A DNA stretch of 63,819 bases, counting the filler, from an uncultured archaeon (GTDB lineage: Archaea > Iainarchaeota > Iainarchaeia > Iainarchaeales > 1-14-0-10-31-34), in NCBI GenBank assembly GCA_964442255.1. It is 9 parts of 9 records of this genome, joined end to end, with 100 filler letters (N's around TTAATTAATTAA, not from the genome) between each part and the next. Parts side by side here need not be neighbours in the genome. Positions count along the whole stretch, not along the records: positions 54,452 to 60,096 come from CAYTYC010000042.1; positions 60,197 to 63,819 come from CAYTYC010000047.1; 7 more parts are not named here. One strand, 5' to 3'. Position numbers: made by a program. Shown one piece after another: positions 60,001 to 63,000 of this stretch (its first letter is position 1; each line of letters begins with the position of its first letter).

Positions 60001-63000
60001 TCCTGATGCAACCTCCTCATCCTCTCATCCCTCGCCCTAGCAAAATCCGGGTCCTGATGCAACCTCCTCATCCTCTCATCCCTCGCCCTAGCAAAANNNN
60101 NNNNNNNNNNNNNNNNNNNNNNNNNNNNNNNNNNNNNNNNTTAATTAATTAANNNNNNNNNNNNNNNNNNNNNNNNNNNNNNNNNNNNNNNNNNNNGAGC
60201 AAAGCGAAGGAGGTGGCATCTCAGTGCCGGCGGACGAAACCGCCAAACGCGGGCGAAGCGAGCAAATCTGCCTCAAGCGAAAGCGAGAGGCAGCCTCCCG
60301 GCACTCCCACCCGAAAGCATGGCACACTCCACTCCCGCGAGCAGGCGGGATTCCGCTGCCGGGAACAGCCGGCATACCGGACCTGCCCTATGGAATGGGC
60401 AAATGCAAACGCGTAGCGTGAGCAACAACCATGCGCTAGCATGGCTCCCTGCACTGCCGGCAGAAGCCGGCAACCGCGAGCGAAGCGAGCAACAACCATG
60501 CGCTAGCATGGCTCCCTGCACTGCCGGCAGAAGCCGGCAAATGGGGCCCCGGGGATTTGAACCCCGGTCTACACCACGTTGGAACGCTTTTTTCTTTTCC
60601 CACGGCTTTTCGCCGAAGGCGAGTTTTTTGATAAAACTTTTCCTTGCAAACCCAAAGGTTTGCGAGGCTCCGCAACGTTGGAAACCTGCGGGTTTCCGAC
60701 GCGTCGAAAAACCGAAGGTTTTTCAACGAAGCTTTGCTTTTACAAGGTTTCCAAAAAGTTTTTCCCCAAGGTGCAATGCTAGTCCAGGCTACACCAAGGC
60801 CCCTTGAATAAAACTGGAAAAGAAATGTTTTAATATACATGAACTTAGTATTAATTATGATGGGGGCAGATAACTTGCTTGGAAGCCTGTTTACCGCGCT
60901 TTTGTTTTTAACTGGCCTGCCTTTTACTGGCACCGGGATAGACTTGGAAAACCTCGCCGTAAGCGACTACAATGTGAGCACCAATTCCCCTTCCCTGAAT
61001 GAAGGCGACTGGCTTGAGCCGGAGAAAGCTTATGGAAAAGGAGGAGGGCAGTCTTTTGCCTTGGATTCAGGGGTTTCCCATGAATTCAGCGGCTTTGGCT
61101 TTGACATTCCCGCAAAATCAACAATTAACGGAATTGAGGTGCTGGATGACAGCTGGGTTGAAGGAACAATTTTTTCCCCTAAACTCAAGGTCTTTCTTTC
61201 AGGGGACGGGGGGAACAGCTGGACAAACCCAAAATCGCATGCACTCACTGATTCAGAACAAACGCATTCCTTAGGCGGGCCGGAAGACAGCTGGGGAGTA
61301 GACTGGCTGAGCGGGGAAATAAACAGCGACGATTTCAGGGTAAAAATTGAGTCAGCTTCAGGGCTTATGATTGCGGGAAGCAGTTTCAGGGAAGACTGGG
61401 TAAGGGTTAAAGTGCATTACACTGAACCTGTTGACTCGTATGCGCCTGACCTGAACTTGAAGAGCCCAAAAAACAAGAAATACGGTTTTGATGAAGGGAT
61501 TCCCTTAAGCTACGAGGTTTCTGATGATGTTGCTTTATCCAGGTGCTGGTACAATCTGGACGGCGACGAAAATATTACGATAAAAAATTGCGAAAACACT
61601 TTTTTTGACGCCAACAAAGGAATTCACTCCCTTAACTTGTTTGCAGAGGACACTTCAGGAAAGGTAAGCACTGAATCAGTTAAGTTTTTGGTTTCTTTGA
61701 AGCCAAGCCAGCCGGTGCTTGTGCTTTACGACAGCTCAATGCCTTCAAACCATTACGACCACTACCTGGCGGAAATACTGAAAACAGAGGGTTTAATGGC
61801 TTTCCAGAAGGCAGACCTTTCAGATTACCGGAAAGGCTTTTTTCCTTTAAACGGGTTTGATTTAGTGATTCTGCTGGAAACAACTGGGTTGAACGTAAGA
61901 GAGGTAATGGATCTCAAAATGTTTGTGAGAAGAGGCGGAAGCCTGATTGGAGTCAATCCAGACAAGAGGCTTGCAAAAGTATTCGGGGTTAAGCCGCTTA
62001 ACTCAAGCCAAAACGGCGGATACATTAAAGTTAACGGAAGCACGGAAATTGGGCACGGAGTTGAGGAAACTCCTATTCAATTCCATTCTGAAGCAGAACT
62101 GTACGAACTGGAGGGAGCTGAAGCGGCTGCATGGCTGTACTCTGACAGAAACAATGCAACAAACTTCCCTGCAATAACACAATACAGTTACGGAAAAGGC
62201 CGCAGTGTTTTATTCGCTTACCCTCTTGTGAAGTCGGTTGTTCTCCTGCACCAAGGGGATGACAGCATGCAAGACATGACTGACACGGACGGGGACGGAA
62301 AATACAGGCCGCAAGATTATTTTGCGAACGGCTTCTATGACGCAAGCAATGCAAGCATTCCGCAGGCAGACGAGCACCAGTCTGCACTGGTTAATTCCGT
62401 TTATTATTTGATGTCAGAAAAGAAGCCTCTTCCAAGGGCCTGGTATTTTCCGGACTACAGCAAAGTAATTTGCCTTATTTCAAGTGACTCCGGCGGAGAC
62501 GACGGCGGAAGGGACATTGAAGTGGAATACCATTCAAACAAGGTGGAGTCATACGGCGGCTGCGCGCATTACAATATTTTGGATTTGGATTTAAGTGTCC
62601 GCGAACACCGCGCCCTCACTGAAAACTGCCACAGCGTTTCGCCTCATGCATATGTAAGCGATACCCCGACACTGGAGGAAATGGAGGGAGGCGTAAGAAG
62701 GGATGTAAGGGACTTCAAAGAAAAGTTTGGGGACCTTGGGAAAGTGCAGGTAACCCACAGCAACATATTTGTGGGTTACTGGGAAACCGCAAAATATTTT
62801 GCTGACAACGGCATTAGGATGAGCGCACAAAACGGCGCCCCAATACATGAAGCCCCTTACCATGGCTACCTGTTTGGCACGGCCCTGCCCTTTAAAATAA
62901 TAAAAAACGAGGACGGCAATCCCGTGATAAACGCGTTTCAGCAGCCTTTGGTTTTCTCGGACATGGTGATGATAGAATACGGCGGATACAATGAAGCGGA

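Follow-up and report, generated by a model that had tools for sequence, protein, structure and literature searches.

In proteobacteria, REPIN-RAYT systems and BIMEs are built of inverted REP doublets that form a long hairpin and gather in mosaic clusters of different unit types; repeats of the REPIN-RAYT kind carry a GTAG tag, and the single-copy RAYT gene is flanked by REPs. In archaea, related introns occupy different tRNA sites in the Thermoproteales (so-called 'intron transposition'), and tRNA introns can carry small RNAs, as the intron of tRNA-Trp does with a C/D box RNA. For Caldiarchaeum, a mobile-element model of tRNA disruption has been put forward (PMC3293823), and the way in which the tRNA introns of Asgard archaea arrive 'remains open', as a passage of a 2026 preprint puts it (10.64898/2026.10.13.758758). 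The CGTC REPs have stems of 7-9 bp, loops of 4-5 nt and a CGTC foot, and occur mostly as head-to-head dimers; they are extragenic, often transcribed, species-specific in sequence and patchy in their spread, they 'lack a dedicated transposase', and they are described from five bacterial phyla only (Di Nocera, De Gregorio, Rocco 2013; PMC3733652). Extragenic palindromic repeats are also widespread in Archaea according to the RepRanger survey, which covers intergenic regions of Euryarchaeota and Crenarchaeota; the repeat described below is likewise extragenic, and the portion of the survey cited here mentions neither nesting nor tRNA introns (PMC12306157). A literature search, mostly at the level of result lists, found no paper on a repeat element inside an archaeal tRNA intron.

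The repeat analysed here lies in the intron of a tRNA-Pro(GGG) gene of an uncultured archaeon of the Iainarchaeales (GenBank assembly GCA_964442255.1), within a stretch of DNA of 63,819 nt, filler between the joined contigs included, hereafter called the window. With introns allowed (Aragorn -i), the gene is read on the minus strand at 60542..60803 (C47 c[346-607]) and is the sole tRNA-Pro(GGG) gene that Aragorn finds in the assembly. Its 5′ exon (60764..60803, tRNA positions 1-37) and 3′ exon (60542..60576) are separated by a 187-nt intron (60577..60763) at the canonical 37/38 site. The 140-nt repeat, delimited by BLASTN and nhmmer, occupies 60624..60763 on the same strand; BLASTN and Aragorn thus confirm its position inside the intron as given in the genome-wide survey's note, and also that base 1 of the repeat is base 1 of the intron. 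The 16S-23S spacer named in the title of that note applies to the copy on C17 alone; there is no rRNA on C47. The central part of the repeat, called the core below, takes up bases 17-122 of the intron, away from both splice sites, and the remaining intron (60577..60623, minus strand) consists of a GC hairpin with a TTCG loop, followed by a segment that pairs with the anticodon loop. A bulge-helix-bulge (BHB) can be drawn by hand, in which a CCAA close to the 3′ end of the intron is the partner of U32U33G34G35 and the helix is flanked by 3-nt bulges read from the sequence (G36 G37|A and C G|U38); the minimum free energy fold of the intron has other pairs at this place and lacks the BHB. An EndA domain, that of the splicing endonuclease, is encoded at C19:20859-21119. 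The 37/38 site, the BHB and the endonuclease gene are those of an archaeal BHB tRNA intron, and splicing of the 187-nt intron is plausible. Unitigs of a public DNA run match both junctions of the C47 copy with zero differences (60519-60704 and 60683-63715), no contig of that run joining across the element, and no empty allele of this tRNA-Pro site was seen among them. Note also that the default tRNA finder missed this gene, which was found with the intron option.

The repeat is a composite, in which a core of 106-107 nt sits in the loop of a palindromic unit of about 33-34 nt, called the shell below. The shell consists of a T-run arm, a short loop and an A-run arm with a TTTATCAAAAAA tail; in the intron copy its 5′ arm and loop (AAAAACTTTTTGGAAA) lie at 60748..60763 and its 3′ arm and tail (AAAAGTTTTATCAAAAAA) at 60624..60641, on the minus strand like all parts of the core between them. 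The three-hairpin core of 106 nt (60642..60747) scores 113 bits with covariance model R1. Its left domain is closed by an 8-bp helix, the 5′ strand of which (60740..60747) pairs with the 3′ strand at 60668-60675 (60668..60675), and which encloses two CGTC-tagged stem-loops placed head to head, namely hairpin 1 (60702..60728; CGTT-stem-loop-stem-GACG, a CGTC-tagged stem-loop on the opposite strand) and hairpin 2 (60676..60701; CGTC-GGAAACC-CGCA-GGTTTCC-AACG). The right part of the core is a further stem-loop, hairpin 3, here with an extension (60642..60667; CCT-C-GCAAACC...GGTTTGC-A-AGG), and the core ends CCTTGTAA and TTGCAAGG are complementary at 7 of 8 positions. A second full copy in the window (30995..31135, plus strand, C38:3380-3520 by BLASTN, core at 31012-31118) precedes an intron-bearing tRNA gene (31208..31429, plus strand), read as tRNA-Tyr(GTA) in the earlier note and by Aragorn as tRNA-Asp(GTC) with the intron placed differently; a 16-nt direct copy of tRNA position -1 to +15 (tRNA start 31208) stands at 30950..30965 on the plus strand. 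The window further contains a short form (8952..9035, plus strand), made of the shell and a two-hairpin core (8968-9018); the form as a whole begins directly after the stop codon of the upstream ORF.

In the genome as a whole we found 10 full cores, one more cut by a contig end and about six short two-hairpin forms. Whole-genome BLASTN recovers seven full copies of the composite (C12:16172-16312, C17:3455-3592, C38:3380-3520, C9:14252-14394, C8:3621-3759, C47:428-567 and C6:14809-14945), with nhmmer E-values of 1e-47 to 1e-39 and identities of 82-99% when compared with the C12 copy and of 79-86% with the C47 copy, and in addition the copy cut by a contig end (C22:25529-25596), in the same places as those listed before. 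The copies on C12, C17 and C38 are 98-99% alike despite their unrelated loci, and the tRNA-Pro copy is 82-86% alike to the other type-A copies. What had been listed as shorter pieces on C4, C9 (46097-46200) and C29 are in fact full cores of 103-105 nt that form a second subfamily (type B) with a different outer stem, and in these three (3 of the 10 full cores) the core has the opposite orientation with respect to the shell loop. Two neighbourhoods were described correctly: the C17 copy lies in the spacer between the 16S gene (1481-3155) and tRNA-Ala (3791-3863), with the 23S gene starting at 4234 by Rfam coordinates, and on C12 the tRNA ends at 16171 and the repeat begins at 16172. Stable-RNA genes contain or adjoin about one third of the copies (6 of 17 in this genome, 7 of 27 loci in the family f20), most copies adjoin protein genes, and all type-A copies point in the same direction as the downstream gene. 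The direct repeats reported at the C12 and C38 insertions exist, but each is 16 nt long and encloses a composite block (246 nt on C12, where the direct repeat is at the tRNA 3′ end, and 242 nt on C38) and not the 140-nt unit; altogether, three composite blocks have direct repeats on their two sides (16, 16 and about 13 nt long), and two of these blocks also have an inverted copy of the tRNA end. Assemblies are broken by these repeats, in which many contigs end.

The 140 nt had been regarded as one element with its own inverted ends, a view that does not hold, as the ends make up a separate palindromic unit of about 33 nt that is present family-wide. Exact 17-21-mers of the shell 3′ arm and tail have many occurrences in each of the 8 family genomes, and the similarity between near-identical copies extends precisely as far as the shell does. 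C17 has a tandem pair of empty shells (GAAAGCTTTTTGGAAAAAAGCTTTAGCAAAAAGG) next to a filled one, and the comparison of empty with filled shells reveals no target duplication at the core-shell joint (zero duplicated bases). The tRNA-Pro(GGG) introns of three related genomes, G004 (83 nt), G005 (78 nt) and G006 (101 nt), have a shell-like unit first, at the same site, and no core; these are 3 of 3 relatives with a tRNA-Pro(GGG) read by Aragorn, among 5 loci examined. Since the shell opens the intron in these genomes, it is ancestral there, and this comparison shows that the shell already belonged to the tRNA-Pro(GGG) intron of the family ancestor and that the core, judging from the introns compared, is at that place exclusive to this genome. 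As the core-less relatives have the shell at the same position, the start of the repeat at intron base 1 goes back to the old intron and not to the insertion. Shell units also open other introns: 5 of the 23 introns predicted in this genome begin with one within their first 5 bases, shell-first introns occur in other genera too (tRNA-Pro, a class-II tRNA and tRNA-Ser), and approximately 15-17 of the 23 are composed of dispersed repeat modules.

The fold was examined by covariation. In an alignment of 8 copies, pairing is present in 95.9% of cells and double changes in 8 of 40 pairs, values reached by 0 of 500 shuffles, slid controls giving 25-52%; for 19 copies, drawn from five genomes and one metagenome contig and put in an alignment fitted to the model, the values are 96.1% of cells and 29 of 40 pairs (0 of 500 shuffles; slid controls 27-52%). 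The closing helix of the left domain (helix 1) has double changes at 8 of its 8 pairs in alignment A5, the stem sequences differ between genomes with pairing retained, and four helices are kept across families by compensatory changes. Judging from the aligned copies, the fold of the repeat is maintained by such changes, and the survey's observation that the hairpins are kept through paired changes is borne out. Folding z-scores of the copies range from -4.2 to -6.4 against mononucleotide shuffles, and a strand test based on folding energy gave no preference for the tRNA sense strand. Rfam has no match to the element at gathering score, and none at E<=1 for 7 copies.

How does this repeat compare with the systems described above? 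It resembles CGTC REPs in its extragenic and presumably often transcribed setting, the species-specific sequence, the patchy spread and the lack of a dedicated transposase in what was searched, and also in the short stem-loop size, the CGTC foot and the head-to-head dimer: hairpin 1 has a stem of 8 bp (12 bp with its extension) and a loop of 3-4 nt, hairpin 2 a stem of 7 bp and a loop of 4 nt, each of them, taken on its own strand, has the form CGTC-stem(7-8)-loop(4-6)-stem-AACG, and in all long copies the CGTC foot of one hairpin directly adjoins that of the other, which lies on the opposite strand. The link between the two hairpins is GACGCGTC in 9 of 10 long copies and GGCGCGCA in the C6 copy. 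The genome contains 22 CGTC-footed perfect hairpins, 17 of them inside repeat copies, and among the feet of all 7-bp hairpins of the genome no CGTC enrichment is seen (rank 25 of 257). Differently from CGTC REPs, the repeat has the short tail AAC(G) and not an unpaired CCA; where CGTC REPs have A-T pairs at stem positions 1 and 2, hairpin 1 begins A-A and hairpin 2 G-G; the host is a DPANN-type archaeon; the dimer is nested in two further palindrome layers; copies are found inside tRNA introns; and the copy number in this genome is low. CGTC REPs number tens to hundreds per genome; about 10 dimers are counted here, and G103, G101 and G100 of family f20 give 62, 50 and 31 matches to the covariance model, both strands and short forms included. 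With REPIN-RAYT systems and BIMEs it shares inverted doublets, a mosaic of unit types and near-identical members within a genome, but there is no GTAG at the hairpin feet, and the solo Y1 gene of this genome is not flanked by repeats, nor do the two co-occur. As in the Thermoproteales and in Caldiarchaeum, intron sequence is shared with other places in the genome and mobile DNA is invoked for intron change; there, however, whole introns or a 1.8-kb recombinase element are concerned, whereas here a 106-nt passenger sits in an older intron, and the modules of this genome make up tRNA flanks, the rRNA spacer and ordinary spacers as well. Like the C/D box RNA of the tRNA-Trp intron, the repeat is a structured segment of a BHB intron, to be released by splicing, but it has neither C/D nor H/ACA boxes nor an Rfam match, occurs in many copies, most of which are not in tRNA genes, and has an equally good fold on either strand. 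Among the kinds described so far, the nearest is a REP/BIME-type hairpin mosaic with a CGTC-tagged head-to-head pair, and not a transposon-derived MITE; the repeat looks like an archaeal relative of the REP repeats of bacteria.

No enzyme partner of the repeat was found in this assembly (93.8% complete, genome of 1.28-Mb), and no autonomous parent with the core ends. Matches to RVT_1 (reverse transcriptase), DDE_Tnp_1, DDE_3 and IS110 were likewise not found in the 93.8%-complete assembly. The solo Y1 gene (C9:47094-47591) has 49 bits against Pfam Y1_Tnp and 45.9 bits against the NCBIfam IS200 model (cut-off 55), and does not match the RAYT model. It was rejected as mover: its flanks are unique and share nothing with the repeat, the nearest copies of which are 0.9-1.1 kb away, and genome G102 has the gene and no repeats, G101 having 50 matches and no gene; close homologues of the gene, patchy in distribution and multicopy, do not follow that of the repeat. 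An IS200/IS605 tnpA-tnpB element on C21 was discarded as parent (ends and flanks unrelated to the repeat), as were, as source, two weak rve ORFs on C3 and C22, which have no matching inverted ends nearby, and a casposon footprint, for which the 16-nt direct repeat at the C12 tRNA end is present but Cas1 was not found in the assembly. One tyrosine recombinase is encoded on C3.

Among relatives, the survey had correctly described the distribution as patchy with BLAST finding the family in none of the 8 other genomes of the same family, but its figure of five more distant genomes is too low: at E<=1e-4, BLAST finds pieces in 9 of the 195 other genomes of the order (8 of 23 in family f20, 1 of 23 in f23). 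With the covariance model, the repeat is found in 11 of 23 genomes of f20, with 62 matches in G103, 50 in G101 and 31 in G100, both strands counted and short forms included, and none in G102, which is of the same genus as G101. A comparison within one genus of f20 shows a filled and an empty site, a G101 spacer with a repeat block measuring about 360 nt and the syntenic spacers of G099 and G100 84-94 nt. Cores are also present in the introns of tRNA-Asp of G098 and tRNA-Ser(GGA) of G099, which makes three genomes with cores in tRNA introns, and G129 has one core about 75 nt after the 16S end. Pattern scans gave one match in genome_contigs and one in metagenome_contigs, each with no adjacent transposase in the stretch read; scans of viral contigs and of phage and plasmid collections gave none.

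We consider the repeat to be, probably, a non-autonomous nested palindromic repeat of REP/BIME/MITE-like character, parked where splicing removes it. Insertion of the core into the shell loop would have taken place as DNA and with no target duplication, either through an enzyme acting in trans on hairpin DNA or through gene conversion between near-identical shells. The tRNA-Pro(GGG) gene would then be transcribed through the core, which would fold on itself and leave the BHB free, and the splicing endonuclease would excise the entire 187-nt intron; as the whole intron is cut out, the insertion should cost the cell little. In a 1.28-Mb genome the sites where such a repeat could survive are presumably few, namely tRNA introns, tRNA flanks, the rRNA spacer and short intergenic spacers, which may be why repeats pile up there and long introns are built of them. 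Folding of both strands, the occurrence of the core in both orientations relative to the shell and the absence of an Rfam match are signs of an element acting at the DNA level; the strong cross-family covariation and the invariant junction (GACGCGTCG) could equally well go with a selected function. Also against the favoured reading are the missing enzyme partner, the lack of an empty allele at the tRNA-Pro site among the unitigs, the third of the copies at stable-RNA genes, the direction that type-A copies share with the downstream gene, the CGTC foot that is not enriched in the genome and the AAC tail. One alternative, named in the survey's note as well, is a structured small RNA, or a module of RNA processing or stability, which would have no promoter of its own and ride on stable-RNA transcripts, being freed by RNase P, tRNase Z and the splicing endonuclease, so that the RNA set free from the intron copy would be 187 nt long and possibly circular. 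The four helices kept across families speak for such an RNA, as do units that abut mature RNA ends exactly (the C12 tRNA end, the first intron base on C47, and a shell that ends at the first base of tRNA-Val(TAC)), a shell array that begins 2 nt past the 16S 3′ end, the cores in tRNA introns of three genomes and past the 16S end in G129, and two independent A-to-G changes that yield U.G on the sense strand (C6, L053). We nevertheless hold it to be unlikely, because in 9 of 10 copies the fold of the reverse strand is equally good or better, 3 of 10 cores are flipped relative to the shell, protein genes and not stable-RNA genes adjoin most copies, Rfam has no match, the element contains T5-T6 runs, which would tend to halt archaeal RNA polymerase, and the repeat, absent as it is from all 8 same-family genomes, cannot be essential.

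Two further readings remain within DNA. The repeat might be a signal, either a terminator-plus-promoter cassette, the shell T-run ending the upstream gene and the 3′ arm (GAAAAGTTTTATCAAAAAA) providing BRE/TATA for the next, or an array of sites for a DNA-binding protein. Shells do begin directly after a stop codon on C32 and C9, a same-direction ORF begins 14-63 nt past five type-A copies (C9, C8, C6, C32, C14), and the shell arms are similar to the promoter signal of this genome (TTTAAAT / TTTTAT at -30/-31 of start codons, after AAAC). However, the TATA-like T-run has no fixed place, lying at -27, -34, -39 and -47 of the four start codons measured, 44 of 70 matches to the 3′-arm motif have no ORF of at least 80 aa within 200 nt, many such matches are in tandem arrays or tRNA introns, and stems that change with pairing kept suggest a single-stranded fold over a double-stranded site, all of which makes a signal very unlikely. 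The least probable account, to which we would give hardly any credence, is a classical MITE, i.e., a deletion derivative of an insertion sequence moved by a transposase that recognises terminal inverted repeats. The 7/8 complementarity of CCTTGTAA and TTGCAAGG, the two core orientations and the direct repeats of 16, 16 and about 13 nt around three composite blocks would suit it, but the 'inverted ends' are strands of internal co-varying helices, the core-shell joint has no target duplication, the long direct repeats bound blocks of differing make-up and not the unit, and neither a full-length element with the core ends nor a DDE transposase other than the two weak rve ORFs was found. What survives of the MITE-like label is that the repeat is dispersed, structured and patchy and behaves like a small non-autonomous mobile DNA; it is hardly a MITE with terminal inverted repeats and target-site duplications.

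For the tRNA-Pro(GGG) intron, the favoured reading of a parked palindromic repeat makes the growth of an intron legible: a dispersed repeat of 106 nt lies within an older shared segment, of which relatives keep the shorter state. The repeat shows how tRNA introns can grow, there being many such repeats in the tRNA introns and spacers of this organism, and most long introns of the genome share a few repeat modules with tRNA flanks and the rRNA spacer. A much wider proposal, which we find quite unlikely, would be that the palindromic units are more than passengers and that BHB introns of this archaeal order owe both their origin and their growth to them; a hairpin-seeking replicator without transposase would insert itself into tRNA genes at 37/38 and next to the ends of mature RNAs, duplicate 13-16 nt of the tRNA end in doing so, and then take further units into its own loops. 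The introns that open with a shell unit, those composed of repeat modules and the three blocks bounded by direct repeats point in this direction. The CGTC-type REP layout, known from bacteria, is extended here to a small-genome archaeon. On the practical side, repeats of this sort break assemblies and hide tRNA genes from default finders.

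The tRNA-Pro(GGG) gene lies on contig C47 (window 60197-63819) of the studied genome, an assembly of 1.277 Mb in 51 contigs with ~46% GC that is the sole member of its genus among the genomes compared. With its intron option, Aragorn places the gene at window 60542-60803 on the minus strand, and gives it an intron of 187 nt in the canonical position, 37/38; neither the default tRNA scan nor Rfam detected the gene. In this prediction the 140-nt repeat (60624-60763, minus strand) opens the intron, its first base being the first intron base, as the genome-wide survey's note had held, and both junctions of this copy are matched exactly by two unitigs from a public DNA run. 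Between the inner core of the repeat and the splice sites there are 16 nt on the 5′ side and 65 nt on the 3′ side. The intron parts flanking the core can be paired by hand into a canonical bulge-helix-bulge (MFE folds differ), and an EndA gene is present in the genome.

The copies listed by the survey were all recovered by BLASTN and nhmmer (seven full, one truncated where C22 ends, and shorter matches). Its title words "in the 16S-23S spacer" apply to the copy on C17, between 16S rRNA (1481-3155) and tRNA-Ala (3791-3863), but not to the C47 copy, since C47 carries no rRNA. Stable-RNA genes contain or adjoin 6 of the 17 long or short copies in this genome; among 27 distinct loci of another family of the order (f20), two are in predicted tRNA introns and five are ≤100 nt from a tRNA. 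The remaining copies occupy ordinary spacers, some beginning at the base directly after a stop codon.

The 140-nt sequence with inverted ends is present as described, but it is not one unit: a shell encloses a separate core. The shell is a ~33-nt palindrome, AAAA(G/A)CTTTTT, short loop, AAAAAG(C/T)TTTA(G/T)CAAAAAA, whose 3′ arm recurs as exact 17-21-mers many times over in each of the eight other genomes of the family, where a GC hairpin with a TTCG loop usually comes after the unit. The tRNA-Pro(GGG) introns of three relatives (G004, G005 and G006; 83, 78 and 101 nt; two other examined loci read as other tRNAs) sit at the same site and have a shell-like start without the core, so the shell in this intron is inherited and only the inner 106 nt (60642-60747) are new. 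In the studied genome, tandem arrays of shells also occupy many contig ends and the stretch immediately behind the 16S 3′ end; on C17, two empty tandem shells with identical arms adjoin the filled one, with no base duplicated at the joint. Three further full cores, on C4, C9 (46097-46200) and C29, are enclosed by shells whose stem is a different one (CAGCC/GGCTG or TCAACCC/GGGTTGA), and their orientation relative to the shell loop is reversed. Six short forms retain hairpin 3, the closing pairs and a single small hairpin. Adding hairpins 1 and 2 within the loop of that small hairpin gives the long core.

The left domain, closed by an 8-bp helix (CCTTGTAA/TTACGAGG), contains hairpin 1 (12 bp including an extension) and hairpin 2; hairpin 3 comes immediately after it, and hairpins 2 and 3 each have 3+7 bp. 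The shell stem encloses all. That the hairpins are kept through paired changes was borne out: across eight copies 95.9% of cells are paired, with both-side changes in 8/40 pairs, a pairing equalled by none of 500 shuffles and falling to 25-52% with slid partners. In 19 copies (ten from the studied genome, three each from G103 and G101 and one from G099, all f20 genomes, one from an Iainarchaeum MAG and one from a metagenome contig), 96.1% are paired and double changes affect 29/40 pairs, in an alignment fitted to the model, which favours structure. Folding against shuffles gives z of -4.2 to -6.4, and the reverse strand folds equally well or better in 9/10 copies. We read the repeat as a DNA-level, non-autonomous palindromic repeat, tolerated in the intron because the intron is removed; a functional small RNA set free by tRNA processing is a live alternative.

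The patchiness reported by the survey stood for the family, where BLAST found no match in the eight other genomes, but the relatives with pieces are 8/23 genomes of f20 and 1/23 of a further family (f23) among 195 other genomes of the order, rather than five genomes of one family. The hairpin-2 pattern had its sole match in the species collection in a Candidatus Iainarchaeum MAG. A covariance model of the core places the repeat family in at least 11/23 f20 genomes, the five richest having at least 62, 50, 31, 23 and 19 matches, counted over both strands; G102, of the same genus as G099-G101, has none among the matches listed. One syntenic spacer spans ~360 nt in G101, where it holds a repeat block, vs 84-94 nt in G099 and G100: the filled and empty states of one site. 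At this locus (L077, G101:C21, 1483-1844, against G099:C66 and G100:C70) the inserted block is ~285 nt and has a ~13-nt direct repeat (AAAAGGCTTA.TTTG) on either side, of which the empty sites hold a single copy.

Hairpin 2 reads CGTC-stem-loop-stem-AACG and hairpin 1 has the identical pattern on the opposite strand, their CGTC feet abutting as GACGCGTC in 9/10 copies. This head-to-head dimer layout is shared with the CGTC-tagged REPs, which are described from five bacterial phyla and have no known dedicated transposase (PMC3733652); their tail, however, is CCA instead of AAC, and CGTC enrichment was not seen among all hairpins of the studied genome (rank 25 of 257). We therefore class the repeat as functioning like a REP/BIME mosaic and as probably related to the CGTC type, rather than as a proven member. 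Palindromic extragenic repeats are common in Archaea, according to a 2025 survey (PMC12306157). No mover for the repeat was found; the core might enter the shell loop by gene conversion between shells or through an enzyme that acts on hairpin DNA. At C9:47094-47591, minus strand, there is a stand-alone divergent Y1 (HUH) transposase gene (165 aa), with two repeat copies in inverted arrangement 0.9-1.1 kb away; its close homologues (55-76% identity) are distributed patchily, in 40/196 genomes of the order, in multiple copies and often as fragments. A single IS200/IS605 copy (C21:4189-5759; tnpA 139 aa, tnpB 384 aa) has CCTTTAAATACAAC at both ends.

Nearly all long tRNA introns of the genome consist of a few dispersed modules (~15-17 of 23 Aragorn predictions, by eye; some may be false). 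A second repeat family, TTTGCCGGCTTCTGCCGGCAGTGCAGGGAGCCATGCTAGCGCATGG with two GC hairpins, lies 3′ of at least six tRNA genes: at window 60197-60541 (C47:1-345), as a tandem duplicate behind tRNA-Pro(GGG), and downstream of tRNAs on C1, C9, C24 and C28; it also occurs upstream of tRNA-Ile on C12 and, reversed, within the intron of the tRNA at window 31208-31429. A third, ATACGTC-hairpin-TATAAATAT, occupies eight tRNA introns (C1, C4, C15, C17, C28, C34) and the trailers of tRNA-Val, Leu(GAG) and Gly(GCC); it has a CGTC foot, a TATA-like word at its end and a 7-9-bp stem with paired substitutions (AAGGGGTT/AACCCCTT, AACCCAT/ATGGGTT, GAGGCAT/ATGCCTC). tRNA-Gln(CTG) and the 60 nt upstream span window 57005-57137, with the same upstream sequence at C1:84034-84093; this leader comprises a 10-nt direct copy of the first tRNA bases, the palindrome GAACCTTTT..AAAAGGTTC and, abutting the gene, an inverted near-copy of those bases. 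In the C12 and C38 blocks, too, part of the tRNA end recurs in inverted form. For the tRNA at 31208-31429, the intron (31244-31390) holds a hairpin whose loop consists of nine Ts, AACCGGT-T9-GAACCGGT, and T5-T6 runs occur in several other tRNA introns, which is unexpected if the archaeal polymerase is stopped by oligo-T.

Contigs C5, C7, C16, C17, C19, C21, C22, C27, C35 and C49 end in a common array (TTAACAACCCAAAGAAATCCGCTGCCTTCAGGCAGCGG... followed by shell units and GGCCGCCTTCGGCGG hairpins), and such repeats break the assembly. At C23:22610-22800, a ~21-nt unit (CCAAAACCYGAATCCGGYC) is repeated in tandem, immediately ahead of a 41-nt shell tandem at the contig end. Across 887 ORFs, TTTAAAT/TTAAAT, with AAAC ahead, reaches its maximum 30-31 nt upstream of candidate start codons, in keeping with mostly leaderless mRNAs.
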